A stretch of DNA of 64,000 nt from Kiritimatiellia bacterium (GCA_017652705.1 JAGCAM010000079.1:11475-75474), one strand, 5' to 3'. Shown: positions 6,201 through 64,000, numbered from the stretch's first letter. A program made the numbers and translations. Notes: a model not told the origin generated them from the sequence alone.

Positions 6201-6203
6201 GTC

Positions 6204-36691: not shown

Positions 36692-36700
36692 ATTATATCA
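36692..36700 (-). promoter_or_regulatory. extended -10 box TGATATAAT, 6 nt from the ATG at 36685 (leaderless candidate)
   Basis: The reverse complement of attatatca is TGATATAAT. Confidence 0.55.
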
Positions 36701-44868: not shown

Positions 44869-44917
44869 CTTTATTTTCCTTTCTTTTATTTTGGGTGAAT
44901 CTGGTCAAATCCTGTTG

Positions 44918-49300: not shown

Positions 49301-51379
49301 GAACGTGTCGCGTACCCGCCAGACGACTTCGCCCTTCCACGCCGGGCCCGCGGTGGTCAGCGTCGCCGCCGCACCGGTGCCGCCGTCCTGCACCGGAGCG
49401 CCTACTTCGAGGCAGCGGCGTTTGCCGCGCATGCCCAGCCCCGTCATCACCGCGCGGGCCGCCGCGGCGAGGCAGTATTCGTCTTCGTAGGCGATGTCCG
49501 GCGTGAGCGTCCAGCCGGGCGTGATCAGCGTCGTCAGGCACCACCCGGCCGCCCTGCCCGGATTGTAGCAGGCGAACGAACCCTTGCCGAACGCCGCGGT
49601 CGCGACGCCGGGCAGCCGGCAGTCGATCGACTTTTCAAGATCGAACCTCCCGCCGCCTTCCGGACGCACGAGTTTCACCATCCCCTTCGGGTTGCCCCGC
49701 GCGAGTTCTTTTTCGTGCTCGACTTCGCGGCCGAACACGTTGTTGCCGTTCACCACCACCACCTTCGCCCCTTCGAGCATCCGCCCGTAAAGCCAGCACT
49801 GCAGCTCCATCGGCCACGCATCGATCGACGTGCCGAGAAAGACGAACTGTTCGTACGGCGTCTCCTTGAGCATCCGCTCGAGCATCTTGCGCTTCTCCGG
49901 CGCGAGCATCAGGCCTTCGTAGAAATAGTCGCTCGTCTTGCCGAGACCGCGGTCGAAACACTGAAAAACGTCCGCGTCGACGTCAAGCCGGTTCATCAGC
50001 GCCCACGCCTCCCACGCGCCGTGCTGGTGGGCGCAGACGAGCGTCTTGCCGGACGCCCGCTCCGCGAGGTTCTTCGCCCACGGGAACAGCGTCGGTTCGC
50101 TGTTCCGGCGTTCCCACGGCTTCGGCGTTCGCTCCGGCTCCTCGGCGAATTTGTCCGGCGCGTCGGCCGGCGGGTTGATCTTCACCGGCACGCGCACTTT
50201 CTTCTCCGTGCGCATCAGGTTGCGCACGCACTCCCAGTAGGCGTTTTCGAACGCGGCGTCCCACGCTTTGTTCTTGCGTTCCAGCTCCGAAACCGCCGCG
50301 ATGTCCAGCTTCGCCGCGGCAAGCACGTTCGACCTGGCCGTCTCGTATTCGCCCCGCTGGCTGGATATCCGCCTGAGGACGTCGCCGAAGAACCCCTTTC
50401 TCGGCGGCTCGGTTATTGATGCTACGAAATCGTCGAGACGCTTGAGTTTCGCCCCGCAGCCGGCTATGCACTCCTTGCCCTTGGCGAGATAGCTGAGCCG
50501 CGACTCGCGGCCGTGGTCGACCACCACGTATTCCGAATCGGTCTGCACGTAGATCGTGCGCCGGTCGAGATCAGGATACGCCAGCCGCAGCCCGTCAACC
50601 GGGTTCTTCGGCGTCTTCTCCACCAGCACGCACTTGCCGTAGAGCTCGGCGTTGTGGTGGGTCTGCCCCTGGGTCGACCAGCCCAGCACCGCCATCGCTT
50701 CGCGCGTCGAGTCGGGCGGCAGTCCGGAACCAGGTTTCGGATACCACGTCTTCCAGAGCCTGATACGCGCGGGCTCCATGCCGAAAATGTAGCCGACTTT
50801 CGCTTTCATCTCCAAGTGCGTCAGCGCGAAGCGCGCCTCCACCTGCCAGTAGTCCTTGCCGATCGTGTACGCCTTGTCCCAGTCGGAGTTGAGCCCGTAG
50901 TTGCTGTCGGCGAGAATGCCCCAGCCGAAGTCGTAGTACCAGATGATCTCCTTCTCGTCGGTCGGGTTCAGCCAGATCTGGAACTTCGTGTGGCGGTCGT
51001 TGTTGCCGTCGAGGTGCAGTTCGACGTTGTCCCGCCAGATGAAGTTCCGCCGGCGGTCGTTGCGCGCGTCGTTGAACCGCTTCATGTTCTCCGGGGTGTC
51101 CTCCCAGCAGGTGGCCAGCACGTAAAAGTACTTGTCGTCCCAGAGACACCTGAATTCGGTGCGCGGCGTCTTCCACCGCGTGTCGATGGAGACCGTCGTG
51201 CAGCCGAATTCCGTCAGCGGCACGGCGCGTTTCCAGTCGGCCTCGTCCATCTTGCCGTCGATGACGACGGGGGCGGTCGCCTTCTCGACGAAGTGCAGTT
51301 TGAAACTGTCGGTCGTCTTGTCGGCCGCCTGCGCGGCCGCCGCGATCGAAACCGCTGCCAGTATGGTCGTCTTTTTCAT
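46361..51379 (-). CDS. giant secreted multidomain protein: N-terminal CBM9-like domain, Ig-like modules, GH42-like barrel and amidotransferase-like domain
   Basis: 1672 aa with a signal peptide. It has VIDGKMDEADWK (CBM9-like), FLFWLKKKYGTVDKLNAVWKT (GH42-type block) and VKTLVLGYTQILSDKEIEEIISFVRNGGSVIAD (GH42 M-domain-like). The function is not assignable. Confidence 0.75.
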   Translation of the reverse strand: MKKTTILAAVSIAAAAQAADKTTDSFKLHFVEKATAPVVIDGKMDEADWKRAVPLTEFGCTTVSIDTRWKTPRTEFRCLWDDKYFYVLATCWEDTPENMKRFNDARNDRRRNFIWRDNVELHLDGNNDRHTKFQIWLNPTDEKEIIWYYDFGWGILADSNYGLNSDWDKAYTIGKDYWQVEARFALTHLEMKAKVGYIFGMEPARIRLWKTWYPKPGSGLPPDSTREAMAVLGWSTQGQTHHNAELYGKCVLVEKTPKNPVDGLRLAYPDLDRRTIYVQTDSEYVVVDHGRESRLSYLAKGKECIAGCGAKLKRLDDFVASITEPPRKGFFGDVLRRISSQRGEYETARSNVLAAAKLDIAAVSELERKNKAWDAAFENAYWECVRNLMRTEKKVRVPVKINPPADAPDKFAEEPERTPKPWERRNSEPTLFPWAKNLAERASGKTLVCAHQHGAWEAWALMNRLDVDADVFQCFDRGLGKTSDYFYEGLMLAPEKRKMLERMLKETPYEQFVFLGTSIDAWPMELQCWLYGRMLEGAKVVVVNGNNVFGREVEHEKELARGNPKGMVKLVRPEGGGRFDLEKSIDCRLPGVATAAFGKGSFACYNPGRAAGWCLTTLITPGWTLTPDIAYEDEYCLAAAARAVMTGLGMRGKRRCLEVGAPVQDGGTGAAATLTTAGPAWKGEVVWRVRDTFGRLLAGPDRPAVDLPAGTNHVTLAAPRLGAGRYTVDARLEAGGKLLDFASGELVIKPGKPVKCGCGGAYCRAEIAPPEFGEVRFSAGRGTFNPGEKIAVRAAVNGASAGGLKVRGDLRDVRNRVISRVEAAVDASADSVEIVFDQKFLDWSCNFIDVYLEGDRVFDVRRLTCFLHRGDAGADYRIFTTDPCGSGEFAELRLAYFQYCGIDLWETSDVRSCFRGGDPVIRDRIPGSTSDRGCSISSRWWLKHLERRYAEHAEQCRKINGRFISLGDDSGAPSVIQNTIPDWVPAYRERKAENLRRQGVKDFRLFGTDRDSVAKMVENLTPNELPTVVAAMRDAYDRVEVMNAHLNTKFADWKDVTLEAVKAAKPAESPQYVNFLFWLKKKYGTVDKLNAVWKTSVKDFLEIEQKLIEERQKDGVFAPAIDRQTYLEDAFVDQAAAIARGVCSRDRSIGFGFGASTLGNIKYDVLKHLNTVCPYAGSEDIQLARAVPHRYIGECIGVYGGKKVKRPIRERQVWHGLLDGCNFSWFWLGSYMVEGDGSVNPGRAGWMFATYREIMRGPVALTTRSKRENDGIRVLVSRNSGHLSPLVKEMSTHGQARGTLEGLVVAHGFQWDGISSEMIEKGDLRKGVKTLVLGYTQILSDKEIEEIISFVRNGGSVIADARIATHGVDGVRHAKPPLDELFGVKRLSPEAKVEHATLRVEGLAAAPVEIKGVLVDASLRASGAKAHARAASGAEAFFVREFGKGRAVLFNINMAAIPFLDGRGELGAANEAFRRVFAACGHRPFARAVADGVTVPAEFTRFTRDGAVCLGVEKSGRSCERFPMKAEVKLASTNWVYDIRAGRPVGRTDAIPVVFNGLDECFYALLPYEVKAVEVNAPDSAAKGSDLHVEAAVVAGDAGAKPVTHVLRFEMLPPEGESFERLAPVKFKLVDAKGGRASCDFRVAFNESVDRWKIVVTDVMTGVSSEKTVTVK

Positions 51380-51419: not shown

Positions 51420-54400
51420 TCATTTCACCGGTGCCGCGAGCGTCACCGCCGCCGCGCTTTCAAGCCCGGTCGCCATGTCGCGCAGCACAACTTTGTAACG
51501 TCCGGGCGCGTCGGAATACGGGAACTGGAAGTCCACCTTCGTCTTGCGGTCCGCGCAGAACAGCGTTTCGCGGTTCGCGATGCGCGCGCCTGCGGGCGAC
51601 TCAGTCTCCAGCCGGTATACCGAGCCTTTGCGCAAAACCGCCGTGTCCAGCGAAATCTCGTCGCCGGGCGCGATTTCCGTCTTCGTCAGCCTGACTTCGG
51701 GCGGCCGCTGCTCGGTCTTGAACGCCGCGTAGAGCGCATGCGGTTTCTCGAGACGCGCGATCGTTATGCGGTCGGACCGGCCGATGAAACCGACATCGGA
51801 TTCATACACCCACTTCTCCTCGCCGAGCTCGATTTCCGCCCGCTTGCCGAGATTGTAGGTGCTGGTGACGAACCCGAGCAGCGTCATGTCGCCGAGTTCG
51901 CGGATCCGGAACTTGACACCGTCCGTCGAAATCCCGGAAAGCTTCTCCTTCACCGTTATCCCGCTCTCGGCGAGCAGCGCGGTTATCCGGTCGTCTTTCC
52001 AGCCGCGCTTGAGCTCCTTCCATAGACCGGAGAGCGGCGGTTTTTCGCGGCGCGCGAGGTATCCGTCGAGAACGCCCGGTTCGCAGTCGGAATATATCTT
52101 GCCGCCGCGTTTCGCGAACTTGGCGAGCGCGGCGGTTTCGCCGTCGTCGAGGGCGACCGCGCCGGAGAGAAACAACGCCTTCATCTCGTCCAGCCTGCAC
52201 AGCGACCGCCGGGTGACGATCGCCGTGTCCATGCCGTTGCGGTAGCAGTAGTCGATGAACGCGCCGTTGCCCTCGCGGGCGGACGGAAAATCGTCCGAAA
52301 GCGTCGACGCGTGGTTGGAGGCGTGGGAATAGTAGATCGCGAAGGCGCTTTTCCGCATCGGCACCCGGCACAGCAGCGCGCCGATCCCGCGCGACAGCGG
52401 CCTCCACGTGGGCAGCATGCGCTTCACGTACGGTGCCGGCTGAAAATCGCTCGACATTCCGGACTCCGCGCTCGCGGGGTCCATCTGGAACCAGAGGTCG
52501 GCGTTGAGGGTTCCGCACAGCACGTACCCCCACTGCTCCGCGGCGAAACCGTCGCGCGGCGAGCGTTGGTAGCCGCCCCACCAGATGCCGCGCAGGCAGC
52601 GCGGCGCGATGTTGCGCACCAGTTCGTCGTCGACCTTGTTGCCGTACGGCCCCCAGAACTCCAGTTTCGAAAGCGTGTATTCGATGTCGGCGCCGGGCGA
52701 CCCCTCCGCGCCGCAGCGCGCTTTCGGGTCGCGCTTCTTGATTATCGCCGTCAGTTCGTGGAATGTGTCGGCGTAGAGGTGCTCCGCGTACTGCACCTGG
52801 TCGTACCACGTCACCCAGTCGTTCGCCGCCCTGGACGCTTTCACGCGCACGTGCGGCGCCTCCGCGAAGTCCGCTATGTTGGTGCCGTGCGCCCGGTTGT
52901 ACGCCGCAAGCGTGCCGTAACGCTTCTTCAGATAATCGCGGTAGTACCCTTCGCTCTCGGCGTCGCCGAAGCCGATGTCGGACGAATACCCGCACTCGTC
53001 GCCGAAACTCCAGGCGAGCGGTCCGTACGGCAGCGTTGCGTCGATTCTCTTGTTGTAGAAACGCGCGAGCCGCTCGCGGACCGCCGGCCGGTGCACGTTG
53101 AGGTCGTGCCCGTTCGCGTCCCACCACTGCTTGATTTCGGGATCGCCGCGCGACGATTTCGGTATCGGGCATTGCGTCGTCCACACCGTGCCGCTGGGAC
53201 CGGCGGCGAGGCACACGCGCGTCGAATACGGCAACGCCCGACCGTTGAATATCGCGCTCAGCGAGCCGGACGACAGATGGTTGTTGTAGCCGATTTCATC
53301 CATCAGCGGGGGCGCGAAGAGTTCCGCGAGATTGCCTGGGCCGATGCCGTCCCAGCAGATCATCGCGTAGTCTTCGAAACGGTGCGTCGGGAAGAACACC
53401 AGTTTCTTCACCTTCGCCGCCGCGCCCCCGTCGGCCTTCCTCAACGTCACGTCGACGCACCCCGCCTTCGTCGGGAACGGCTTCGCGGCGATCTGATACC
53501 TCACGCTCCGCGCGCCGCCGCCCACCGGAATCTTGCACCTGGCCCGCACCTGGCGGTAGGGCATGTCGCGCAGCAGCACATCGACCGTCCACTTCTCCCC
53601 ACGAGGCACGGGCTTCTCCCACGCGATCACCGTGTCGAACCGGCAGCCCTCCGCTACCACCATCCTGTTCGTGCCGTTGACGGTCATCGCCCCGACCGGG
53701 CTCTGCACCGTAAACTTCCTCACCGACGCGAAATCGTCGCAGCCGCCGCTCCCCGGCACCACGTCGACGTAGTAGTCGCCCCCGGAGTAACCGGATATGT
53801 CGACCGCGAACACGTTGCGCCCGGCCTTGACCGGCGCCGTCTCGTCGACCAGCAGTTCGTTGTCAGACGATCTCACCCGGTACTTCACCGAATCGCACGC
53901 GCCGCGGGGCGCGGCTTCCACGGTGAACGGATACAGCTCGGTGCCGAGCGGCAGCGGCTCGGCCACGCCGGCGGCCTGCGCGAATTTAACCGTCGACGCC
54001 GGGTTGCGCCCCGCCGCGTAACGCGCCGCGTTCATGAAATACGTCGACCGCGTCTCGTAGTTGGCCCTCCACGCGAAGTTCCAGAATTCAGGCACCGGCA
54101 CGTCGATGCACACCACGCGCCCCCTGCCGTAGCGGTACGCCCTCACCGCCTTCGGCGACAGCCCCGCCGCCGACAGTATCCGCCGGCCTTCCTCGTCGGG
54201 CTCGAGGTACTTCTCGTCGGGCACCAGATCGCGCCCAACCCTGGAACCCCGCAGCACCAGCCCCACCCCCTCGTCATGCACCCGCCTGACGATCTCGCAG
54301 CGGTACACCGCCGGTATGCCGGACGGATAGGTGTAGTGAAGCACGATCACTTCGGGGTTTTTCGCCAGCATCGTTTCAAACTGACGGTAGCGCGGCAGCG

Positions 54401-55667
54401 GCAGCCCCCCGGTCACGAGATCGGCGAAGATCGACGAATATCCGAACGGCATCGGGAAAACATCCACCTTGAAATCGCAGCGCTGGCAGACCTCAACCGC
54501 ATCGCGGACCCACGGCCCGGTTCCGGTTATGCACAGCACCTTCGCCGCGCCGCCGAGCGATTTTTCGCACCATTTCAGATGCGGCGTCACGTACGCCGTC
54601 TGACTCGGATTCCACCTGAACCAGCCGTTGTGGCCGTCGTACTCCTTCGGCGGGTTGAGGTCGTATGTGCCGGCGAGCCGCAGCTTCTTCGGCGGCAGCG
54701 GCTTCTCCATCGTCGCCATCCTGACTATGTTGGTGAGCGCGGCGTCCGTCTCCGCCTTGTCCGCCGCGGCGATTTCGTCGAGCGTCTCCTGTATCGTCTT
54801 CGATATCTCGCGCGTGCCGTCTTCGTCGTGCAGGTAGCTCTTGCCGCCGATGCCGACCGCCCAGTACCCTGGCACGCGCTTCTCGATCATCTTAAGTATC
54901 GTCGCCGCGGCTGGCTTCGCCCCGTCGGAAAACTGCAGATACCCGAACCTGTTCGCCGAGAAAAAGCTCGCCATCACCGCCGAAGCGCCGAAATCGCCCC
55001 AGCCGCGCTCGGTGAAACGGAACCGCGAATGGTTGAACCGCCACACTTCGCCCGGCCTGACCTTCGCCCGCCCGTGCAGCGCCGCCCACGGTATGAAAAG
55101 CTCGAATTCCCAGCGGTCGCTGAATATCTTCGCCGCGCTCTTGATGCCGTCGGGCTTCCACGCCGGCTGCGGATTGTTCGGATCCATTCTCCAGAGCGTG
55201 GAACAGACGCCGAGCGAATTGACCATGAACTTGTAGAACCCGACCGCGTCGCCGACCGGATCAAGGTAAATCTCGCCGATGTCGTCGGTCTCGATCGCAT
55301 TGTCGCCGCTCTTGCGGGCCCGTTGCCGCAGATTGCCGGGCTGCGACTCGGGGTTGCACACCCCGACGTACAACCCCGCGTCGTCGTACATGATCGCCGC
55401 GCTCGTGCCCTCGAACTTGTGCTTCGGCCGCGGTTTTATGTATTCGTAGTAGACCGTGTGCGGCATGGCGTCTTTCCAGCACGCATCGTCGAGCGCCCCG
55501 TCGATTTTCGGCGGCGTCTTCGCCGGCATCGCCACGTCAAATGAGATTTCCGCCACGTCCACCGCCTGCACCGCCGCCGCGAACACTGCCGCAACGCCGC
55601 ATACCGCGGCCCTCAATGCCGTCAAGCGGCCGGTATGTCGGTCGACAAAAGATTTTTCAGTTTTCAT
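51420..55667 (-). CDS. giant secreted paralog of the 1672-aa protein (CBM9-like + GH42-like architecture)
   Basis: The start is reset to MKTEKSF (ATG at 55667), behind a TGGTAGAAT box. It has IDGALDDACWK, YYRDYLKKRYGTLAAYNRAHGT, SFGDECGY and ALAKFAKRGGKIYSD. Confidence 0.75.
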   Translation of the reverse strand: MKTEKSFVDRHTGRLTALRAAVCGVAAVFAAAVQAVDVAEISFDVAMPAKTPPKIDGALDDACWKDAMPHTVYYEYIKPRPKHKFEGTSAAIMYDDAGLYVGVCNPESQPGNLRQRARKSGDNAIETDDIGEIYLDPVGDAVGFYKFMVNSLGVCSTLWRMDPNNPQPAWKPDGIKSAAKIFSDRWEFELFIPWAALHGRAKVRPGEVWRFNHSRFRFTERGWGDFGASAVMASFFSANRFGYLQFSDGAKPAAATILKMIEKRVPGYWAVGIGGKSYLHDEDGTREISKTIQETLDEIAAADKAETDAALTNIVRMATMEKPLPPKKLRLAGTYDLNPPKEYDGHNGWFRWNPSQTAYVTPHLKWCEKSLGGAAKVLCITGTGPWVRDAVEVCQRCDFKVDVFPMPFGYSSIFADLVTGGLPLPRYRQFETMLAKNPEVIVLHYTYPSGIPAVYRCEIVRRVHDEGVGLVLRGSRVGRDLVPDEKYLEPDEEGRRILSAAGLSPKAVRAYRYGRGRVVCIDVPVPEFWNFAWRANYETRSTYFMNAARYAAGRNPASTVKFAQAAGVAEPLPLGTELYPFTVEAAPRGACDSVKYRVRSSDNELLVDETAPVKAGRNVFAVDISGYSGGDYYVDVVPGSGGCDDFASVRKFTVQSPVGAMTVNGTNRMVVAEGCRFDTVIAWEKPVPRGEKWTVDVLLRDMPYRQVRARCKIPVGGGARSVRYQIAAKPFPTKAGCVDVTLRKADGGAAAKVKKLVFFPTHRFEDYAMICWDGIGPGNLAELFAPPLMDEIGYNNHLSSGSLSAIFNGRALPYSTRVCLAAGPSGTVWTTQCPIPKSSRGDPEIKQWWDANGHDLNVHRPAVRERLARFYNKRIDATLPYGPLAWSFGDECGYSSDIGFGDAESEGYYRDYLKKRYGTLAAYNRAHGTNIADFAEAPHVRVKASRAANDWVTWYDQVQYAEHLYADTFHELTAIIKKRDPKARCGAEGSPGADIEYTLSKLEFWGPYGNKVDDELVRNIAPRCLRGIWWGGYQRSPRDGFAAEQWGYVLCGTLNADLWFQMDPASAESGMSSDFQPAPYVKRMLPTWRPLSRGIGALLCRVPMRKSAFAIYYSHASNHASTLSDDFPSAREGNGAFIDYCYRNGMDTAIVTRRSLCRLDEMKALFLSGAVALDDGETAALAKFAKRGGKIYSDCEPGVLDGYLARREKPPLSGLWKELKRGWKDDRITALLAESGITVKEKLSGISTDGVKFRIRELGDMTLLGFVTSTYNLGKRAEIELGEEKWVYESDVGFIGRSDRITIARLEKPHALYAAFKTEQRPPEVRLTKTEIAPGDEISLDTAVLRKGSVYRLETESPAGARIANRETLFCADRKTKVDFQFPYSDAPGRYKVVLRDMATGLESAAAVTLAAPVK

Positions 55668-55674
55668 GAAGTTA

Positions 55675-55683
55675 ATTCTACCA
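55675..55683 (-). promoter_or_regulatory. extended -10 box TGGTAGAAT, 7 nt from the ATG at 55667 (leaderless candidate)
   Basis: The reverse complement of attctacca is TGGTAGAAT. Confidence 0.5.
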
Positions 55684-55740
55684 AAATACGCCGCCAAGGG
55701 CAATAGCACGCGCCGGACGCGGTACGTCGGCGGCTGTCAC

Positions 55741-57267
55741 TCACTTGCGGGGGACGGACTGCCCGCCGGCGCAGCTGCACGGCAGAAACCGCACGCGTAC
55801 CATCTCCGCGTCCGAAAGCCGGACGTCGTCAGGCAGCGGACCGGGCTTCTCCGCCGAAACGAAAGCGTTCGGCCGCGGCTCCTGGACGGGCACGACGATC
55901 CATTCCGACCCGTCGGCCTTCCGCTCGACGCGCCCGCCTTCCGCCGCAACGACCTGGCGGACGAGTTTTTCGCTGACGGCCTTGAGTTTGTCCCAGTCGT
56001 AGTCGGTGAATTCCCACTTTCTGCCGCGGTCGAGCTTTTCCAGAAACCCGCCCCGGATGCGGCTCGCGCCGAGCGAGGCTCCGAGCACTCCGCAGGCGGA
56101 GGCCGGGTTGCAGTCCGAATCGCATCCGCACCCGGTGGCGATCCTCGCGGTTTTCTCCATGTCGCCATCGCCCCACAGGTATCCGATCAGCACGTAAGCG
56201 CCGTTCAGCCTGACGTCGATGCCGGCAAAGGAGACGAATCTGCAGTTCTGGGGCGTGAAGTATTTGCGCGTAAGCGCCTCCCACGCAGTCCGCCAGTTCG
56301 ACGGGTCGCGCCCGTACGCCGCGAGCGTGTCGCGCACCATCTCCGCGTAGCGCGACTCCGCCGGAATGTGCCTGAGCGCCGAGCGCACGACCGAGGGGCG
56401 GTCCTGCGTGAAATACGCCTCGGCGTACATCGCCCCTACGAACTGCCCCGCGTAGAGCCCGTCGCCGTAGTTCATCACCGCGCCGAACCGGTTGCCCAGC
56501 CTGACCGCGCGGTTGGGCAGCCCCGGCGATATTATGCCGCTGAAGTCGGCCTCGATCTGATAGTCTATGTCGTACGGGGTCGGATGAAAGTTCGGGTGCC
56601 CGCAGCTGGGCGCCGCAATCCCGCGGCGCAGATTGTTCCGGGCGTTGTGGTTCGCGCACCACAGCCGGTACTTAGAATTGGCGAAGGCGATGCCGGCCTC
56701 GCGCGCGTCAACGTCGACTCCGCACCTGTCGAGCACGTCGAGAAACGTCATCTCCACGTAGAGATCGTCCTGGCAGAAGGTGCCGTTGATGATCTCGGCC
56801 TTGTATTCAGGCATGAGGTCGTCAGGCACGGGCTTGCCTACGCATTTGAATTCCGTCGGCGCGCCGTAGGCGACGCCGATGGACTGCCCGAGCCACGCGC
56901 CGGACATCCTGTCGCGGAATTGATCCATGGCGAGACTTCTCTCCGGCGCAGCCCTCTTCGCCCCTGTCTTCGGAACGGCTTTCTCTTTCGGCGCGGCGCC
57001 GACCCCTTCAATCGAATTCTTCTCCGCAACTTCGCCCTTTTCCGCACTTTTGACGGCGGCCCTCTCTTCGGGCAGATCGACTATCGTGCCGGGAAGCAGT
57101 TTCCTGCCCCCTATTACATTGCCGCCTTCTATAACCTCGACCGGCACGTCGCGCTTAAGCCGGTAGCTTCTGATCTTTCGGACGTCGTTTTGCTTCTCCT
57201 GCCCGAATGCCGCAAAAATCGCCAGCGCCATCGCGCAGACGGCCGTCATCGCTACGTGTTTCTTCAT
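55741..57267 (-). CDS. secreted ADP-ribosylglycohydrolase-family protein with N- and C-terminal extensions
   Basis: 508 aa with a signal peptide MKKHVAMTAVCAMALAIFAA. The core MSGAWLGQSIGVAYGAPTEF...QDDLYVEMTFL...YGDGLYAGQFVGAMYAEAYF...TGCGCDSDCNPA is typical of the ARH/DraG fold. Confidence 0.8.
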   Translation of the reverse strand: MKKHVAMTAVCAMALAIFAAFGQEKQNDVRKIRSYRLKRDVPVEVIEGGNVIGGRKLLPGTIVDLPEERAAVKSAEKGEVAEKNSIEGVGAAPKEKAVPKTGAKRAAPERSLAMDQFRDRMSGAWLGQSIGVAYGAPTEFKCVGKPVPDDLMPEYKAEIINGTFCQDDLYVEMTFLDVLDRCGVDVDAREAGIAFANSKYRLWCANHNARNNLRRGIAAPSCGHPNFHPTPYDIDYQIEADFSGIISPGLPNRAVRLGNRFGAVMNYGDGLYAGQFVGAMYAEAYFTQDRPSVVRSALRHIPAESRYAEMVRDTLAAYGRDPSNWRTAWEALTRKYFTPQNCRFVSFAGIDVRLNGAYVLIGYLWGDGDMEKTARIATGCGCDSDCNPASACGVLGASLGASRIRGGFLEKLDRGRKWEFTDYDWDKLKAVSEKLVRQVVAAEGGRVERKADGSEWIVVPVQEPRPNAFVSAEKPGPLPDDVRLSDAEMVRVRFLPCSCAGGQSVPRK

Positions 57268-57361
57268 GCGTTCCCTTTCATTTTCGTTTTACATCTTTCT
57301 TGCTTGCGGTCGAATCCCTTTCACTGAGGCAATCGGTGCAAAGGCCATCTCGCAAATATCA

Positions 57362-57814
57362 TCACCCCCAGGCCAACCTGACATTCTCGACACCCCATGT
57401 CCACGCGCTTCCGGAAAAGCCGTGGATCCCCGTCAATGTCCCGACCGGCACACTCCTCCCGAGATTGACCCCTGCGTCAACGCATGGCGTTCCCTGCGCT
57501 AAAAAGCAATCCTGCATGAAAAGCGGATCGGAATAGATAAGAATTCCGTTTTTGTAGTATCGCTGGGCGGTCGGCGTTATTACCGCGGTGATGACATTCG
57601 TAACGCCGGGCGATACCGCAATGGCGGTGTCACAGTCAGGGTTGCCGTTGCCGGATATATCTTTCCATGTGGTTGCGGCAGAATCATGCACGCCTGCACC
57701 GGCGTCGTCGATGCCGTCGAAATGTACAACGAGACCTCCTTGTATGTAGGCGCTCGCGGGCATGCCGTCTGCCGTCATCAACATAATCGCAAGTACAACC
57801 GGAAAATATTTCAT
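57362..57814 (-). CDS. small secreted protein, possibly a truncated LamG/concanavalin-like domain
   Basis: 150 aa with a signal peptide. LVVHFDGIDDAG...WKDISGNGN resembles LamG_3 N-termini. An SD AAGGAG lies upstream. The local sequence looks less GC-rich than its flanks (by eye). Confidence 0.5.
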   Translation of the reverse strand: MKYFPVVLAIMLMTADGMPASAYIQGGLVVHFDGIDDAGAGVHDSAATTWKDISGNGNPDCDTAIAVSPGVTNVITAVITPTAQRYYKNGILIYSDPLFMQDCFLAQGTPCVDAGVNLGRSVPVGTLTGIHGFSGSAWTWGVENVRLAWG

Positions 57815-57882
57815 CCCGACAACTCCTTATTTTGCGCGCGCCGCTCAACTCCGCAAGCGACGCACCGATTGATTGTGCAACA

Positions 57883-57911
57883 ATACTACCAAATTCAACG
57901 TTTCCGCGCAA
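57883..57911 (-). promoter_or_regulatory. promoter TTGCGC-N17-TAGTAT with TG for the LamG-like gene
   Basis: The extended -10 is atactacca at 57883-57891 (RC TGGTAGTAT). The -35 is gcgcaa at 57906-57911. It is divergent from the tRNA-Tyr promoter. Confidence 0.4.
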
Positions 57912-57944
57912 GGGCGTTGAACAGCCTTGGGGCGCGCGGCGGGG

Positions 57945-57974
57945 TTGACGGGAAACGGCTGAATTTGATATACT
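57945..57974 (+). promoter_or_regulatory. promoter of tRNA-Tyr: TTGACG-N18-TATACT with TG
   Basis: TTGACG lies at 57945-57950 and TGATATACT at 57966-57974. The tRNA starts at 57995. Confidence 0.55.
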
Positions 57975-57994
57975 ACGCGCTGTTTACGACACAT

Positions 57995-58080
57995 GGTGGG
58001 ATACTCAAGTGGTCAACGAGGGCAGACTGTAAATCTGCTGGCTTGCGCCTTCCAAGGTTCGAATCCTTGCCCCACCACCA
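57995..58080 (+). tRNA. tRNA-Tyr (anticodon GTA), long variable arm, CCA encoded
   Basis: 86 nt. Acceptor GGTGGG(A)/CCCCACC, anticodon stem GCAGA/TCTGC with loop CTGTAAA, T arm CAAGG-TTCGAAT-CCTTG. It is collinear with my recollection of E. coli tRNA-Tyr. Confidence 0.9.
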
Positions 58081-58115
58081 TCCATGAAAAGACAATTCCC
58101 CGCAAGGAACCGGTC

Positions 58116-58553
58116 ATGGACATGCTCCCAGTCGGGGCGCATCCCGGCGACATGGAATATTCGCTGGGCGGCACCCTTTTAAATACAAAAACTTGAGCAC
58201 AAGATATTCATCGCCCTGACCACGAGCGGCAACACCGGCTCGAACGTGCTGACCGACGTCAAGTTGATCGGCGAAACCCGAGAAAGGGAAATGCTGGAAG
58301 CGGCGAAGACCTACGACGCCGAAGTGCGCTTTCTGCGGAACGACGACGAGCGCCTGCTCGACACCAACGAAACCCGCACTCAGGTTCTATACGGCATGCG
58401 CCGGGCGAACACCGACGTGACTTTCACCCACGCGCCGAACGACGAAAGCCCCGACCACTGGATGACCTCCCGCAGTACGGCTGCATGTACGCGGAATGTT
58501 TCACCGCGTACAGAATGGCCGGCTACATGCCGGATTTCAGACTGCTGCCCTGA
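58116..58553 (+). pseudogene. decayed PIG-L/LmbE-family deacetylase gene (frameshifts and internal deletion)
   Basis: Frame 0 reads MDMLPVGAHPGDMEYSLGGTLL then a stop. The +1 frame reads KIFIALTTSG...REREMLEAAKTYDAEVRFLRNDDERL...THAPNDESPDHW. Frame 0 resumes with YGCMYAECF...LLP then a stop. The total is only about 146 codons. Confidence 0.6.
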
Positions 58554-58557
58554 GCCT

Positions 58558-59799
58558 TCAGCCGAGCCTGTCCACCGTCATAACGGGCAGATTCTTTCCG
58601 GAAGGCTCTTTCATCGGCTTCATGCCGGAGGGGTCGAATGCGTAGCCGTTCGAGCCGAGCGGCCAGACGGCCGGGGCGGTGTTGAGCACGGTTGCGCGAA
58701 AGCCCTGCATCGTCGCGCCGAGATTGCCGGTGTGGGAGCTGTTACAACCCTCGTTCTCGATCACGAACGGATTGCTGTATCCTTTCACCATGAGCGTCTC
58801 GAGGAACTTCGTCCAGTCGCAGGAATCGCTGCCGCCGAAACCGGGCAGGCGCGGCTCGTAATTGAGACGGTCCCACTCGTTGGCGGGCAGCGGCACACCG
58901 GCCTTCTTCGCGAGGACGGGGTCGACGCTCTGCATGGGGAACAGGCGTCCCCAGTGTACGGCTTCGGTTTCTCCGGGGAAGTTCCTCGTGCCCTTGATGT
59001 GGACGCGGCGCAGCTTTTTGAAATCCATCGCCTCGATAACCGCCGAAGGGTCGATGTGCTGCCAGATGTCGTGCGACGGATCGTACGTCTCTTGCAGCGC
59101 TGAGTCGTCGTCAAGCACGGCGTACATCAGTTTGCGCGCAGCGAGACACCCCGGCAGGTTGCAGTAGCAGTCGGTCGAAGACAGCGGCCGCCACCCCTCC
59201 ATCGGGCAGTTTTCGACGCAGAGCGTGACTCCGAGGTCCTTGGCGTATTTGAGAATCGGGGTGAAGACCTTTTTGAACTTCATGAGGTTCTTCTCGAAGC
59301 CGTTCTCCTCGTTGGAGAGGGCGACGTCGTACCCGACGAACGTTCCGCAGACGACGTCGTTCGCGTCGCCGCCGAGCAGCGCGGCGATGCGGACGAGTTT
59401 GAGGATGTGGTTCTGGTTGACGATCTGGAGTTCGGGTTTGCCGCCGATAAGGTTGTCGTAGGCGCCGACCGACATGCGCACGCCTTCGCGGTTGCAGATG
59501 TCGATCACCCGTCTGGCGTCGTCGATCGAGAAATTCTCGTAGTCGAGATGCGTGGCGACGTGATCCTGGCGGTCGGTGTCGCGGCGGAACACGCAGAGCT
59601 CGAGGCCCTGGGCTCCGACGCTTTTGGCGCGGGCGACGACGGTTTCGAAATTGCGGTCGGCGGCGAGCGCGCTCGACATCAGCCAGATCTGGTTGTTGCG
59701 CGGTTTCGGCTTCGCCTGCCGGGCTAACGCCGAACCGGGGGTGAACGCACCCGCCGCGGCTAGCGCGGCGGCGCTTTTGAAGAAGTCCCTCCTGTTCAT
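58558..59799 (-). CDS. TAT-exported xylose-isomerase-like TIM-barrel protein
   Basis: The start is reset to MNRRDFFKSAAALAAAGAFTPGSALA (twin-arginine). The track start at 59847 would overlap the upstream gene. Confidence 0.8.
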   Translation of the reverse strand: MNRRDFFKSAAALAAAGAFTPGSALARQAKPKPRNNQIWLMSSALAADRNFETVVARAKSVGAQGLELCVFRRDTDRQDHVATHLDYENFSIDDARRVIDICNREGVRMSVGAYDNLIGGKPELQIVNQNHILKLVRIAALLGGDANDVVCGTFVGYDVALSNEENGFEKNLMKFKKVFTPILKYAKDLGVTLCVENCPMEGWRPLSSTDCYCNLPGCLAARKLMYAVLDDDSALQETYDPSHDIWQHIDPSAVIEAMDFKKLRRVHIKGTRNFPGETEAVHWGRLFPMQSVDPVLAKKAGVPLPANEWDRLNYEPRLPGFGGSDSCDWTKFLETLMVKGYSNPFVIENEGCNSSHTGNLGATMQGFRATVLNTAPAVWPLGSNGYAFDPSGMKPMKEPSGKNLPVMTVDRLG

Positions 59800-59813
59800 G
59801 ACCGGCCCTTCCG

Positions 59814-61373
59814 TCAGACCACGATCTTCCAGTTGTCGCGGTAGCACGGGCGCTTCAGCCAGTCCGGATCGCCGGTGCCGTTGGCGAAGGTCATGTTCGG
59901 CCCGTCCCAGTCGAAACCGGTGTCGTAGATGTAGCTCAAGTTGCAGAGCTGGCAGAGAATCGCGCCGCGGGCGCCTATTTCAGCTGTGGAGACGGTGGGC
60001 TTGCGCGTTTCGATGCACTCGCAGAAATTGGCCACCTGGTTGGTACTCTTGTAGAGCTGCACCGGGGCGCCGGCGAGATTGAACTTCTCGATCAGGGTCT
60101 GCACCGCTCTGCCGAGGCGGTCGTCTTTCTTGACCATCGAATCGGTGCCGTAATCTTTGCCGACGGATGCGGCGACGATCTTGTCCTTCATGAACTCGCA
60201 CGTCTCGATCTGCTTGCGGATCTCGAGGTCGGGCTTGACGAGGCCGGTGCCCTTCCAGACGGCGACCTTGCCGCGGTTGACGGCGACGATGCCGTCGGTT
60301 CCGTAGAAGACCGTTCCCCACACGCCGAAAGGCCCGTGGTAGAGCTCGATGTCGCCGCTCTTGCCCTTGAAAAGCATCTTCATGCCGTACTGGCGGCGGC
60401 CGCCGTGGTAGAGGTCGGTCGAGTAGGGCTCGTCGGAGCGGATGATCTTGTATGGGCCGGACTTGTCCATGTCCATGCCCCACTGGGCGATGTCGAGGTG
60501 GTGAGCGCCCCAGTCGCCGCAGTAGCCTGTGCCGATGTCGTCGTCGAAGCGCCAGAACATCGGGTAGAACTTGTTCACGCCCTTCGGCGCGAGAAGGTTG
60601 GAGTAGGGACGCCATTTGGCGGGGCCGAGCCAGCGGTTCCAGCCCCATTCGCCGAGTTCGGCGTAGCCATCGCTCTCGGCCGCGGCGTTCCGGGGGTCGT
60701 CGAAGAACCTGAGGGGATGCGACGGGCCGCCGAGTTTCTTGCCGCCGATGCCGTAGTTGGCGTCGACGTACTTAAGCTCGCCGATGCCGCCGTTGCGGAC
60801 GATCATGCACGCGGCGCGGAATTCGCTGACCTTGGCCCAGCTGCGCTGCATCGAGCCGGTCTGGAACACCCGGCCGTACTTCTTCTGGGCCGCGATCACC
60901 TGTTTCGCCTCCTCGGGCGAGAAGGTGAGGGGCTTTTCGCAGTACACGTCTTTGCCGTGCTTCATCGCCTCGACGCACATGTAGGCGTGCCAGTGGTCGG
61001 GGGTGGCGATGCACACCGCGTCGATCGACGGGTCTTTGATGATTTCGAGGAAGTCCAGCACGACGCGGCAGCCTGAGTCGCCGTAGAGCCGGTTGACTAT
61101 TTCAGCCGCCGCCTTGGCGCGGGTCCCGTCGCAGTCGCAGACGGCTGCGATTTTCACCGTGTCGCGCAGGTGTTTGGTGAGTTCCGAATCGCCGGCGAAC
61201 TGCGGGATGAGCGCACTGCGCATCTGGATGCCGCAGCCGATCATGCCGATCTGGCGTTTTTCGCCGGGCTTGAGCGGATGCAGGCCGATTTTGCCGTCCG
61301 CGCGGCCGGCGAGGGCCGCCGCCGCGGCGGATCCGAAGATGAAGTTTCTGCGGTCGAGTTTCATGTTGTGCAT
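59814..61373 (-). CDS. TAT-exported Gfo/Idh/MocA oxidoreductase
   Basis: 519 aa with MKLDRRNFIFGSAAAAALAG, a Rossmann IGMIGCGIQ, TPDHWH and CEKPL. Confidence 0.85.
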   Translation of the reverse strand: MHNMKLDRRNFIFGSAAAAALAGRADGKIGLHPLKPGEKRQIGMIGCGIQMRSALIPQFAGDSELTKHLRDTVKIAAVCDCDGTRAKAAAEIVNRLYGDSGCRVVLDFLEIIKDPSIDAVCIATPDHWHAYMCVEAMKHGKDVYCEKPLTFSPEEAKQVIAAQKKYGRVFQTGSMQRSWAKVSEFRAACMIVRNGGIGELKYVDANYGIGGKKLGGPSHPLRFFDDPRNAAAESDGYAELGEWGWNRWLGPAKWRPYSNLLAPKGVNKFYPMFWRFDDDIGTGYCGDWGAHHLDIAQWGMDMDKSGPYKIIRSDEPYSTDLYHGGRRQYGMKMLFKGKSGDIELYHGPFGVWGTVFYGTDGIVAVNRGKVAVWKGTGLVKPDLEIRKQIETCEFMKDKIVAASVGKDYGTDSMVKKDDRLGRAVQTLIEKFNLAGAPVQLYKSTNQVANFCECIETRKPTVSTAEIGARGAILCQLCNLSYIYDTGFDWDGPNMTFANGTGDPDWLKRPCYRDNWKIVV

Positions 61374-61432
61374 TTCCTTTTCAGTGTTTTCAATCGTGTT
61401 GTTTCATCCGTTGACGGTTGAGCCGCCGGCGG

Positions 61433-62482
61433 TCAGATCGCCGGACGGAGAATCATGTTTTTGAAGTCGGCGTCGGAGTGGTCGCCCTGCAGGTAGATGG
61501 GGCCTTTCGCGTCGACATCGGCGTCGATGGCGCCGCCGGTCACGCCGGTGACCTCGGCGTTTTCGATGATGGTGACGCCGTTGAGGACGACGGTCAGACG
61601 GCGCTTGTAGATCGTGACGCTCACGTGCTGCCATTCGCCGGGCGCCTTTTCGGCGGCGGTGATCGGCGTGACGCGGCCGTAGTAGGCGGCCATGTTGTGG
61701 CGGTTGACCGGCTTCTTGTAGCTGTCGATCACCTGGCACTCGAAACGCCCGCGCAGATAAACGCCGGAGTTCGACCCCTCTGGCACGCGCACGTCGTATT
61801 CAAGGTTGAAGTCGCCGAAGTCGTCGCGCCTGGTGACGAGATTCACCCCGCCGCCCTTCCACTTGCCGTCGGGCTTGCGGCCGAGCGCGTTGGAGAGGAC
61901 GCCGTCCTTGAACTTCCAGCCGAAGACGCCGCCCTTGCTCATCGCCTTCCAGCCGTCGAGACCGTCCTTGAGCAGATCGACGGGTTCTCCGAACTTCGCG
62001 TTCTTCACGTTGGCGAGCTGGCAGACCGGTGCGATGCGCCAGCCGGAGAACGGCTTGTAATCGCCGTTCGCCTTGCCGTCCTTGTCGCAGGGGGCGATCT
62101 CGCCCTCGAGTTTGCAGCCTTTGACCTTGCCGCGCATCAACACGCCGTACGGGTGGCGGAACGAGAAGGAGTCCCCCTCGACCTTCACGTCAAGGCACCA
62201 CTCCGGAGAGCCCCAGCGGTAGAGGACGAAAGCTTTCGGCTCGCCTTCTTCGGTACGGGAGAAAATGAGGCTCGAAGCGTACATCGAATCGTACGGCAGC
62301 TTCGCGCCCCAGTTGCCTATCACGGGGTCGATCGACGTCTGGTCGCAGATTTTCGGCGCGCACGGCGTGCAGGGCCGGCCGGGCCGGCAGCAGGTCTCTC
62401 CGGCGGTCTGGCATTCGGCGAAGGCCGCCGCGGCGGACACAGCCGCGACTGATGCGAGGATGGCGGATTTTTTCATTTTCAT
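61433..62482 (-). CDS. secreted DUF1080 (3-keto-disaccharide hydrolase-like) protein with a Cys-rich N-terminal segment
   Basis: 349 aa with a signal peptide, then ECQTAGETCCRPGRPCTPCAPKIC. The C-terminal domain has LLKDGLDGWK...NSGVYLRG...IYLQGDH. It has an ATGA overlap with the upstream stop. Confidence 0.8.
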   Translation of the reverse strand: MKMKKSAILASVAAVSAAAAFAECQTAGETCCRPGRPCTPCAPKICDQTSIDPVIGNWGAKLPYDSMYASSLIFSRTEEGEPKAFVLYRWGSPEWCLDVKVEGDSFSFRHPYGVLMRGKVKGCKLEGEIAPCDKDGKANGDYKPFSGWRIAPVCQLANVKNAKFGEPVDLLKDGLDGWKAMSKGGVFGWKFKDGVLSNALGRKPDGKWKGGGVNLVTRRDDFGDFNLEYDVRVPEGSNSGVYLRGRFECQVIDSYKKPVNRHNMAAYYGRVTPITAAEKAPGEWQHVSVTIYKRRLTVVLNGVTIIENAEVTGVTGGAIDADVDAKGPIYLQGDHSDADFKNMILRPAI

Positions 62483-63837
62483 TTGCTCCTTAGATATGCG
62501 CTGTATGCGCGGTAGGTTTCATAACAGTCGTTTTTGGAAACGATTTCCCACGGGGCGTGCATGTTCCACATGGGCGTGCCCATGTCGAGAACCTTCATGC
62601 CGAATCTAGCCATGTACTGCGAGATGGTTCCGCCGCCGCCCTTCTCCATCTTGCCGAGTTCGGCCATCTGCCACGCGACGCCTTCTTCGGCCATGATGCG
62701 CCTGATTTCGGCGATGAATTCGGGCGAGCAGTCGCTGGCACCGCCCTTGGTGGCGCCGCCGGTGTACTTCGAAGCCGCCACCCCCTTGTGGAGACGCGCC
62801 TCGTTGCCGGTCGAATCGACGTCTGGAAAGTGCGGATCGGCCGCAGCCGTGACGTCTGCCGAAAGCATCGTCGATTTTTCGAGCGCGCGGCGCACCGCGA
62901 TGTCTTTCGCGCCGCGCTCCTGAAGCTCGATCATCTCGGCGACGGTGTTCTCGAAGAATGAACTCTGCATCCCGGTCGACCCCATCGACCCGATCTCCTC
63001 CTTGTCGCACATCAGAATCGAGGCGGTGACGGACGGCGTTTCGCCGGCGGCGTCGAGAAGCGCCCGGAGCCCGGCGAAGGAGCATACCCGGTCGTCGTGG
63101 CCGTAACCGGTTATGAGCGCACGGTCGAGGCCGACGTATCGCGGCATTCCGGCCGGCACCATTTCGAGCTCGGCGCTTAGCAGGTCTTCATCGTCGATCT
63201 TGTAAGTCTTCTTCAGGTACGCGACGAGCTTCGAGCGCGGCGATCCGCGGTCGTCCGGTTTCGCGTCGGCGTCGCCGGTCGTCCAGCAGACGGGGTCGAG
63301 ATCCTCCGCCGGGAAAAACTCGTCGCGCTTTTTCGCGGCCTGGTCTTTGCCGAGATGGGGCAGAATGTCGGATATGACGAAAACCGGATCGTCAGCCCCG
63401 TCGCCGACCGCCACCTGCACTTTGGAACCGTCTTTGCGCACGACCGTGCCGTAGAGGGCGAGCGGCAGCGTGAGCCACTGGTATTTCTTGATGCCGCCGT
63501 AGACGTGGCAGTCGAAGTAGACGCAACCGCCCTTCTGATAGAGCGGTTTGGGCTTAAGGTCGAGCCGGGGGGCGTCGGTGTGGCCGCCGACGACTTTGAG
63601 GCCGGCTTCGGAGATGCGACGGCGGCCGATGACGGCAGCCATGACCGTGCGGTCTTCGCAGCCGCGGAACACTTTATCCCCCGCTTTGAGGGATCTGAAG
63701 GAGGAAATCTCCCTGAAACCCTTCGCCTTCAACTGGCGCACGCTTTCGGCGTAACTTCTGCGCTCGGTCTTGGCGATGCCGAGATAGCGAATATATTCGT
63801 CGCAGTATTTGTCTGGCGACATGTACTTCTTTTTCAT
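62479..63837 (-). CDS. M18-family aminopeptidase
   Basis: 452 aa with VVGGHTDAPRLDLKP, GYGHDDRVC and MLSADVTAA blocks typical of the aspartyl aminopeptidase/aminopeptidase 1 family. Confidence 0.85.
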   Translation of the reverse strand: MKKKYMSPDKYCDEYIRYLGIAKTERRSYAESVRQLKAKGFREISSFRSLKAGDKVFRGCEDRTVMAAVIGRRRISEAGLKVVGGHTDAPRLDLKPKPLYQKGGCVYFDCHVYGGIKKYQWLTLPLALYGTVVRKDGSKVQVAVGDGADDPVFVISDILPHLGKDQAAKKRDEFFPAEDLDPVCWTTGDADAKPDDRGSPRSKLVAYLKKTYKIDDEDLLSAELEMVPAGMPRYVGLDRALITGYGHDDRVCSFAGLRALLDAAGETPSVTASILMCDKEEIGSMGSTGMQSSFFENTVAEMIELQERGAKDIAVRRALEKSTMLSADVTAAADPHFPDVDSTGNEARLHKGVAASKYTGGATKGGASDCSPEFIAEIRRIMAEEGVAWQMAELGKMEKGGGGTISQYMARFGMKVLDMGTPMWNMHAPWEIVSKNDCYETYRAYSAYLRSK

Positions 63838-63844
63838 GAGGTAA

Positions 63845-63853
63845 AGTATATCA
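63845..63853 (-). promoter_or_regulatory. extended -10 box TGATATACT, 7 nt from the ATG at 63837 (leaderless candidate)
   Basis: The reverse complement of agtatatca is TGATATACT. Confidence 0.5.
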
Positions 63854-64000
63854 AATTAGCGCTCCGCTGTACACCCGGGCGGCGCTTTCCGGAAATTCCA
63901 AATCACCTTACCGTCACTGCCGCCAAGGGCTATTGCCGCGGCAAAAGGCGTGGCGCGACACCGGTGGACAAGGTTTTGAAATCTCCGTTCCATTCAACGA

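Follow-up and report, generated by a model that had tools for sequence, protein, structure and literature searches.

We analysed a 64,000-nt stretch of genomic DNA from a Kiritimatiellia bacterium (GCA_017652705.1 JAGCAM010000079.1:11475-75474), which is called the window below. Four consecutive genes on its minus strand encode an M18 aminopeptidase, a protein with a DUF1080 domain (DUF1080_B), a Gfo/Idh/MocA oxidoreductase (Gfo_B) and a xylose-isomerase-like TIM barrel (TIM_B). The last three are referred to as set B, and a second group of such genes in the window (Gfo_A, TIM_A and DUF1080_A) as set A. In the interpretation that we favour, and to which we give about an even chance of being correct, the four genes form an operon, the three genes downstream of M18 encode periplasmic enzymes of a non-hydrolytic route of glycoside cleavage through 3-keto intermediates, and sets A and B are complementary rather than redundant. 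As far as gene neighbourhoods in relatives tell, the conserved unit is a Gfo gene together with TIM_B, usually accompanied by genes for an AL3-like dehydrogenase and for a lyase barrel resembling AL1, and the linkage of DUF1080_B to this unit is sporadic.

The names AL1 and AL3 refer to the oxidative glycoside cleavage systems BT2156-2160 of Bacteroides thetaiotaomicron and AL1-AL5 of Alistipes (Nasseri et al., bioRxiv 10.1101/2024.03.25.586180). In these systems, AL3/BT3 is a Gfo/Idh/MocA glycoside 3-dehydrogenase exported by twin-arginine translocation (TAT), AL1/BT1 is a TIM-barrel 3-keto-beta-glucoside 1,2-lyase with a His/Asp/His metal site, and AL2/BT2 is a DUF1080 protein that acts as a 3-keto-alpha-glucoside lyase/2-hydroxy-3-keto-glucal hydratase; the available structures are PDB 8tcd, 8tcs, 8tct, 8tda, 8v31, 8tdf and 8tdh (bioRxiv 10.1101/2024.03.25.586180). 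The 3-keto-glycoside operon of Agrobacterium tumefaciens encodes the lyase barrel AtOGE, the hydratase barrel AtHYD (PDB 8ro4) and a Gfo reductase (PMC10628242). A preliminary description of the window had presented set B as a complete three-component set for oxidation, elimination and hydration. The family composition held up, in that the families match those of the BT2156-2160, AL1-5 and AtOGE/AtHYD/Gfo clusters and all three proteins are exported. The completeness did not, because TIM_B is not of the AL1/BT1 type, which TIM_A is, and Gfo_B is a divergent enzyme, as detailed below.

Gene neighbourhoods in relatives

The comparison drew on 84 loci with TIM_B and some 70 with DUF1080_B (numbered with the prefix L), in which gene families were scored by tblastn and iterated hidden Markov models (HMMs). 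Neighbours, defined as genes within 3.5 kb, were counted at those 48 of the TIM_B loci that had 3 kb or more of sequence on each side, and at the 14 DUF1080_B loci with comparable flanks. A Gfo gene of any kind adjoined TIM_B at 30 of the 48 loci, and a Gfo_B orthologue at 21. A TIM_A-like barrel was present at 24 and GfoX, the name given here to a third Gfo class found in relatives, at 17; any DUF1080 gene was found at 7 and M18 at 5. In the arrangement seen most frequently, GfoX, TIM_B and a TIM_A-like gene follow one another in this order, and Gfo_B lies immediately upstream or downstream of them; TIM_B is thus typically flanked by an AL3-like dehydrogenase on one side and an AL1-like lyase on the other.

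When the co-localisation of Gfo, TIM barrel and DUF1080, expected if the preliminary description was right, was tested on these loci, the three-family linkage failed, and it failed largely on the side of DUF1080. Only one of the 14 DUF1080_B loci (L089) had both Gfo_B and TIM_B nearby, repeating the order M18-DUF1080-Gfo_B-TIM_B of the window, and 12 had none of the scored families. Clustering of the DUF1080_B neighbours revealed no consistent partner, the contexts including genes for threonyl-, valyl- and aspartyl-tRNA synthetases (ThrRS, ValRS and AspRS), GH2 and SurA/asd. Neighbour-joining placed the DUF1080 copies from clusters among the stand-alone orthologues. Within 1.2 Mb of TIM_B loci, DUF1080 occurred only 10 times, a density not above that of the window itself; when present, it often lay directly upstream on the same strand (L021, L057, L067, L069, L084 and L078).

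Loci with very similar TIM_B proteins differ in the remaining genes. The four-gene order of the window recurs at L162 (TIM_B 85 % identical); L161 (84 %) has the same flanking synteny and M18-Gfo-TIM_B without DUF1080; and L158-L160 (85 %), which are the closest relatives, read Gfo-TIM_B-MFS-FucI and have neither M18 nor DUF1080. At another locus (L093), the order is M18-DUF1080-GfoX-TIM_A-like. The major facilitator superfamily (MFS) transporter and L-fucose isomerase genes that follow Gfo-TIM_B at L158-L160 may hint at a sugar context in that lineage.

M18 precedes various combinations of these genes in one subclade (L001, L006, L008, L019, L042, L050, L062, L089, L161 and L162) and is missing from most loci. 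The coupling of set B to the aminopeptidase, as first described, therefore did not generalise, and nothing was found that links an aminopeptidase to sugar chemistry. We set aside a functional link between the two, since the linkage is limited to the subclade and different genes follow M18 at different loci. The simplest view is that M18 is a neighbour by position only and contributes a constitutive, near-leaderless promoter. In L050, an apparent tandem duplication of M18-Gfo_B-TIM_B was observed (3696-11254), in which a TIM_B/M18 reading frame is fused at the junction (5785-8409); the duplication may be genuine, or it may have arisen during assembly.

Operon structure and expression signals

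The four open reading frames (ORFs) are present on the minus strand at the positions first described (Table 1), and their families were matched by Pfam with bit scores that all exceed the gathering cut-offs (PF06439, 113.9 vs. 26.8; PF02127, 270.6 vs. 24; PF01408, 76.9 vs. 24; PF19051, 32 vs. 23.3; PF01261, 48.6 vs. 31.1). The conserved relatives of TIM_B (70-85 % identical) and DUF1080_B (53-78 %) show that these are real genes and not chance ORFs. Relatives of all four proteins occur in gut and rumen Kiritimatiellae at 55-88 % identity, and the best ones come nearly all from gut/rumen Kiritimatiellae/Kiritimatiellia metagenome-assembled genomes. The M18 protein has no signal peptide. The length of TIM_B is counted from an ATG, and an alternative GTG start at 59847 would extend the protein to 429 aa.

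The gaps of 59 nt between DUF1080_B and Gfo_B and of 14 nt between Gfo_B and TIM_B were read directly from the sequence and agree with the first account. For the junction between M18 and DUF1080_B, the reported ATGA overlap is present if the first ATG (62482) is used, but two observations favour the ATG at 62476. First, the Shine-Dalgarno motif AGGAG lies 3 nt before 62482 and 9 nt before 62476, the latter spacing being better. Second, the NCBI protein P0121, which has 347 aa, is 100 % identical to DUF1080_B and is annotated as 'MAG: DUF1080 domain-containing protein [Kiritimatiellae bacterium]', begins at 62476. The true start of DUF1080_B may thus lie two codons later, giving a 2-nt gap and no overlap.

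A putative sigma-70-like promoter precedes M18 (Table 1). The promoter-like site ends at 63845, 7 nt ahead of the M18 ATG at 63837, so that a near-leaderless transcript is predicted. The sequence TTGATATACT has two exact copies in the window, and six matches were found when up to one mismatch was allowed, where chance alone would give 0.41. Two of the copies with one mismatch, TTGATATAAT, precede the ATGs at 36685 and 15183 by 6 and 8 nt, respectively. Leaderless mRNAs are thus suggested to be common in this genome. The extended -10-like motif TTGATATA(C/A)T was observed 6-8 nt before three ATGs, namely those of M18, of a V-type ATPase B-like gene (35288-36685) and of an ORF at 14299-15183. 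It also occurs at 57965-57974 on the plus strand, 20 nt upstream of a tRNA-Tyr gene.

No terminator-like site was found on the minus strand within the operon. The sole terminator-like hairpin on this strand downstream of the operon lies about 450 nt past the TIM_B stop codon, and its role as a terminator is uncertain. An Rfam scan of 57000-64000 returned tRNA only and no regulatory RNA. The close packing of the genes, with an overlap and short gaps, is a sign of co-transcription, and it is plausible that all four genes are transcribed together from the near-leaderless promoter before M18. The earlier suggestion that a leaderless promoter at 63845-63853 drives the four genes thus appears reasonable, given its distance from the ATG, the recurrence of the motif near other ATGs and the lack of an internal terminator.

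TIM_B defines a narrow family remotely related to a hydratase

Relatives of TIM_B with 70-85 % identity were confirmed by tblastn at at least 577 loci in a one-genome-per-species collection, in which a few genomes had two copies. Yet when 1.84 billion 50 %-cluster representatives were scanned exhaustively with HMMER, no more than 257 matched at E<=1e-3 and no more than 14 at E<=1e-30, and many matches were fragments. From these searches, the TIM_B family is narrow, lineage-restricted and, by its sequence conservation, strongly constrained. The TAT signal of TIM_B (NRRDFFK...ALA) scored 24.1 bits against PF10518 (TAT_signal), above the cut-off of 22.7.

A single-sequence search of the PDB with TIM_B found nothing at E<0.01, and structural relatives could be reached only with the family profile. 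This profile matched SCO6571 (2zds, 2.7e-21), MJ1311, AtHYD (1.6e-11), Art22 and IolE (8e-10), and it did not retrieve the AL1/BT1 structures 8tcd, 8tcs and 8tct. The residues E196, D240-P-S-H243, H267-x-K269 and E348 are invariant in the family, and E196, D240, H267 and E348 are predicted to form a metal tetrad. The E-D-H-E tetrad and, within the motif YDPSHxxWQ, the pattern DPSH..(W)Q are common to TIM_B, SCO6571 and AtHYD, and the E, DPSH, H-x-K and E positions of TIM_B and AtHYD are aligned. An AlphaFold2 (AF2) model with a predicted local distance difference test score (pLDDT) of 83.8 had Foldseek neighbours in agreement with the profile (SCO6571, 1.6e-13, template-modelling (TM) score 0.75; AtHYD, 1e-10, TM 0.68, 16 % identity). 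SCO6571, an uncharacterised xylose-isomerase-like barrel of Streptomyces coelicolor, is the best match of TIM_B by both profile and structure, and it provides no mechanistic information. Judged by these matches, TIM_B is not an AL1/BT1-type lyase. Of the characterised proteins, AtHYD, the 2-hydroxy-3-keto-glucal hydratase of Agrobacterium, comes closest to it, though the relationship is remote. TIM_B differs from AtHYD in being 60-70 aa longer, with a conserved C-terminal extension.

TIM_A, on the other hand, matches the AL1/BT1 structures 8tcd, 8tcr, 8tcs and 8tct at about 1e-11 and possesses the HNH, D..W and H motifs. The two barrels show no significant similarity (pairwise blastp E 0.29). 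The idea that they are diverged duplicates was rejected, since iterative HMM searches from TIM_B never recruited TIM_A. The difference in length (413 vs. 330 aa) had been taken to imply a different substrate; it reflects different subfamilies and steps and not necessarily different substrates. The presence of both barrels side by side in 24 of the 48 relatives suggests that they act at separate steps of the same pathway and not on different substrates.

We also observed TIM_B genes 71-76 % identical to the Kiritimatiellae protein on contigs of the 'H076xx-L1_cleanbin' series (L018, L030, L036, L037, L048, L074 and L079), in bins named Gemmiger, Barnesiella, Anaerovoracaceae, Azospirillum, Faecalibacterium, Lachnospira and Clostridium. 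For these, mis-binned contigs are more likely than horizontal transfer.

Gfo_B is a divergent oxidoreductase

The TAT motif of Gfo_B (DRRNFIF...ALA) is canonical, and its TAT_signal score of 18.8 bits is under the cut-off of 22.7. In Gfo_B as in TIM_B, the twin-arginine motif precedes a hydrophobic stretch and an AxA cleavage site (ALA). Compared with AL3 (8tdf and 8tdh), Gfo_B retains the EKP motif, the NW..GPA..RPY motif and the catalytic Asp248/His252 (GDWGAHH), and GGKKLGGPSHP replaces the sugar-binding loop with Arg192/Trp195. When examined for the residues of an AL3/BT2158-type glycoside 3-dehydrogenase (Gln161, Arg192, Trp195, Asp248 and His252), Gfo_B did not pass as one: of the mapped AL3 residues, it keeps only EKP and the Asp/His pair. 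GfoX keeps all of them, its AL3-equivalent motifs being QMGNQG, TNRPVWPQG and GDMACH. GfoX proteins (L001 3830-5377; L002, L005, L008, L021, L057 and L083) were also seen to have QKP in place of the canonical EKP while the mapped AL3 substrate residues are kept.

The top NCBIfam match of Gfo_B, Gfo_A and GfoX is NF058561 (BT_2158_fam, glycoside 3-dehydrogenase), with 83 bits (aa 61-303 only), 221 bits and 259 bits, respectively. Because all of these scores are below the cut-off of 750, none of the three proteins is, on this measure, a BT2158 equivalog, and Gfo_B is the most divergent. The second-best NCBIfam match of Gfo_B is IolG, and its best single-sequence PDB match is DgpA (2.6e-19). A likeness to the C-glycoside deglycosylation systems DgpA/DgpBC and CarABC extends to TIM_B, whose profile weakly matches DgpC-/CarB-type barrels. 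However, the DgpA match is confined to the NAD-binding domain, the Dgp/Car enzymes are cytoplasmic, and no small partner subunit is encoded in the operon here.

DUF1080_B, a possible enzyme of the BT2/AL2 superfamily

DUF1080_B and its relatives, which are 53-78 % identical, form a well-defined orthologue group that includes the N-terminal domain. In the protein, a signal peptide of the Sec type and a Cys-rich linker are followed by a beta domain that spans some 110 aa (aa 50-160), and a PF06439 jelly-roll occupies aa 175-344. The N-terminal domain has no Pfam match even at E<=1; the orthologues, too, carry the linker and this conserved beta-rich domain (together aa 25-160), and the domain has AF2 pLDDT values of 80-93. 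A lipobox (LAGC or LSGC) was observed in most orthologues; FAEC is present in the window protein instead.

Among solved structures, the catalytic domain is most closely related to BDI_3914 (4qhz), an uncharacterised DUF1080 protein of Parabacteroides distasonis (profile E 1.3e-11). BDI_3914 has the NSG, E.Q, Y and LQ motifs in common with DUF1080_B, but it lacks the N-terminal domain and has LQSHGD where DUF1080_B has LQGDHSD, part of a motif (LQGDHSDAD) that is invariant in the orthologues. The BT2/AL2 chains were matched at E 0.003-0.03 only. An hhalign comparison with BT2-like sequences reconstructed from the printed 8rr2 and 4hxc alignments (probability 90 %) placed D205, N238, E248, Q250 and Y268 of DUF1080_B onto E103, N134, E164, Q166 and Y190 of BT2; Q332 corresponds to BT2 Q273 by motif only. 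Because most BT2 active-site residues are kept, DUF1080_B looks like an enzyme of the BT2/AL2 superfamily, belonging to a different subfamily, and not like a mere lectin, a possibility that had been raised when the locus was first described.

A proposed periplasmic route and its comparison with known systems

In the route that we propose, Gfo_B would be exported in folded form by TAT with bound NAD(P) and would interconvert a hydroxyl and a keto group of a sugar. Most likely, it would reduce or transhydrogenate the released 3-keto sugar, or else oxidise a substrate other than that of AL3. TIM_B, likewise TAT-exported, would be a metal-dependent enzyme with an E-D-H-E site and with the position and likely role of the hydratase. 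DUF1080_B, exported through Sec, would be a BT2/AL2-like 3-keto-glycoside 1,2-lyase/hydratase able to feed the same periplasmic chemistry, and it may represent an accessory gene that was inserted between M18 and Gfo_B in some lineages. Gfo and TIM_B, taken with the AL1-like barrel and the AL3-like dehydrogenase that usually accompany them in relatives, make up four parts that would mirror the scheme by which the Agrobacterium and AL/BT systems oxidise, eliminate, hydrate and reduce. The AL1-like barrel and a more BT2158-like dehydrogenase are encoded in set A, 12 kb from set B, which itself contributes TIM_B and Gfo_B; the two sets are therefore read as complementary halves, and the earlier view that set B duplicates the logic of set A with a different set of sequences was given up.

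What set B has in common with BT2156-2160/AL1-AL5 is its three Pfam families, the export of all three proteins, a TAT-exported Gfo/Idh/MocA enzyme among them, to the periplasm, and the shared motifs and active-site equivalents described above. The differences are as follows. TIM_B has an E-D-H-E metal site instead of the His/Asp/His site of AL1/BT1 and no sequence match to it; Gfo_B lacks Arg192/Trp195; and DUF1080_B has an extra N-terminal domain. In addition, both barrels of the window carry TAT signals whereas AL1 uses Sec, the operon contains neither a cytosolic AL4-like reductase nor a DUF6377 regulator, and DUF1080 co-localisation is not conserved in the relatives. The Agrobacterium operon is similar in combining two distinct TIM barrels, for elimination and hydration, with a Gfo oxidoreductase, and TIM_B relatives adjoin an eliminase-type barrel. 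In Agrobacterium, however, the first oxidation is performed by an FAD/GMC dehydrogenase and not by a Gfo enzyme, and the enzymes here are TAT-exported.

Several points weigh against the proposed route. First, the Foldseek neighbours of TIM_B include D-tagatose/D-psicose 3-epimerases, UlaE and the isomerase Art22 with scores similar to that of AtHYD, to which TIM_B is only about 16 % identical; because of these neighbours, the fold alone does not fix the reaction of the modelled protein. Second, DUF1080_B lacks the Lys245 finger of BT2, its His335 is shifted by one position relative to His275 of BT2 (LQGDHSD vs. MQDHGD), and its active site has low confidence in the AF2 model (pLDDT <50 at residues 239-270 and 335-339). 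Third, 12 of the 48 TIM_B loci have no Gfo, TIM_A-like, DUF1080 or M18 gene nearby. Fourth, Gfo_B acting as a periplasmic reductase would have no NAD(P)H exchange. Finally, we infer the enzymatic roles of TIM_B, Gfo_B and DUF1080_B in every case.

Alternative explanations

A farther-reaching form of the proposal, to which we give a rather low probability, is that TIM_B and Gfo_B would constitute a periplasmic enzyme pair that is specific to the Kiritimatiellae and had so far gone unrecognised. TIM_B would either replace the DUF1080 hydratase in an all-TAT version of the pathway or act on a substrate class new to it, and the route would be a core, near-housekeeping part of glycan degradation in the clade.

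A rather unlikely alternative is that Gfo_B and TIM_B are a periplasmic keto-sugar epimerase/isomerase or dehydratase couple, which would oxidise, rearrange and reduce a free sugar or cyclitol without glycosidic cleavage, DUF1080_B being an unrelated neighbour. The epimerases and isomerases among the Foldseek neighbours, the IolE profile match, the IolG match of Gfo_B and the quarter of TIM_B loci without scored families nearby are in line with this explanation. It accounts poorly for the position of TIM_B in relatives, directly between an AL3-like dehydrogenase with all mapped glycoside-binding residues and an AL1-like lyase, and for the DPSH..(W)Q motif in common with AtHYD. TAT export also argues against classical cytoplasmic inositol catabolism, and an IolG/IolE-like function was judged unlikely because both Gfo_B and TIM_B carry TAT signals.

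We consider it improbable that set B is a self-sufficient triad of dehydrogenase, lyase and hydratase/hydrolase that works in parallel to set A on a different disaccharide. The three families are present, exported and adjacent, the same four-gene order occurs at L089 and L162, most BT2 residues are kept in DUF1080_B, and BT_2158_fam is still the top NCBIfam match of Gfo_B. Nevertheless, DUF1080_B orthologues are solitary at most loci examined, TIM_A and TIM_B belong to unrelated subfamilies that stand side by side in half of the relatives, Gfo_B lacks the AL3 sugar-binding loop, and the syntenic locus L161 does without DUF1080.

There is also little likelihood that the DUF1080 adjacency is a chance juxtaposition of expanded paralogue families and the M18 linkage mere synteny: the density of Gfo, TIM and DUF1080 genes in the window, the frequency of DUF1080 around TIM_B, which is no higher than in the window, and the lack of a consistent neighbour of DUF1080_B would fit, but DUF1080 often lies directly upstream on the same strand, M18-DUF1080-Gfo-TIM arrangements occur in several lineages with DUF1080 identities of 55-70 %, and the overlap between genes and the short gaps are signs of co-transcription.

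Other features of the window

The positions of the features are listed in Table 1. At least three Gfo genes are present in the window, along with two genes each for DUF1080 proteins and TIM barrels.

Table 1. Positions of the operon, its expression signals and set A in the window
Feature	Position	Strand	Match or remark
M18 aminopeptidase, 452 aa, operon gene 1	62479-63837	minus	PF02127 E 3e-80; NF002600 557 bits (cut-off 529)
DUF1080_B, 349 aa, exported two-domain protein	61433-62482 (alternative start 62476)	minus	PF06439 E 1e-32
Gfo_B, Gfo/Idh/MocA oxidoreductase, 519 aa, TAT signal	59814-61373	minus	PF01408 E 3e-21 and PF19051
TIM_B, xylose-isomerase-like TIM barrel, 413 aa, TAT signal	58558-59799	minus	PF01261 E 1e-12
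Sigma-70-like promoter: -35 TGTACA, 17-nt spacer, extended -10 TG-TATACT	63845-63873	minus	9/12 matches, with TG
Extended -10-like motif TTGATATA(C/A)T	63845-63854(-), 36692-36701(-), 15192-15201(-), 57965-57974(+)		recurrent in window
Terminator-like hairpin (role uncertain)	58093-58112	minus	sole one on this strand downstream of operon
Gfo_A, TAT signal and lipobox, BT2158-like	44918-46315	minus	set A core 43876-46315
TIM_A, 330 aa, TAT signal, AL1/BT1-type lyase barrel	43876-44868	minus	HNH...DVGW...H motifs
nadC, between TIM_A and DUF1080_A	42685-43590
DUF1080_A, 504-aa lipoprotein, two DUF1080 domains	41186-42700	minus

Between set A and set B, two genes on the minus strand encode giant secreted proteins, one of 1672 aa with a CBM9-like domain (46361-51379) and one of 1429 aa (51420-55709) without a Pfam match. 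They are followed at 55741-57267 by a gene for a 508-aa protein of the ADP-ribosylglycohydrolase family with an N-terminal hydrophobic, signal-like segment. Convergent with TIM_B, a disrupted PIG-L/LmbE-type deacetylase gene was observed at about 58117-58545 (plus strand). Its conceptual translation, stitched over an in-frame stop/frameshift near 58185-58200, scored 66.5 bits against PF02585, and the gene is probably a pseudogene.

Implications for the Kiritimatiellae

The Kiritimatiellae are an uncultured and poorly understood clade of glycan-degrading bacteria of the gut and rumen. To our knowledge, glycosidic cleavage by oxidation, elimination and hydration is a recent discovery that has been reported from no bacteria other than Bacteroidota, Agrobacterium and a few Gram-positive species; our literature search found no paper linking the Kiritimatiellae to this pathway. 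What we describe is a variant of a known pathway type and is not surprising in kind. It would be distinguished by a lineage-restricted TIM barrel that replaces or adds to the DUF1080 hydratase, by a divergent Gfo enzyme, and by the export of the barrels and Gfo through TAT alongside a Sec-type DUF1080_B. Our results suggest that gut and rumen Kiritimatiellae carry a rearranged oxidise/eliminate/hydrate route built on TIM_B and a divergent Gfo. If confirmed, this would widen the taxonomic and enzymatic range of the pathway and would provide functions for two large unnamed protein families, which would be useful for their annotation. It would also call for caution against annotating every neighbourhood of Gfo, TIM and DUF1080 genes as a complete 3-keto-disaccharide system.

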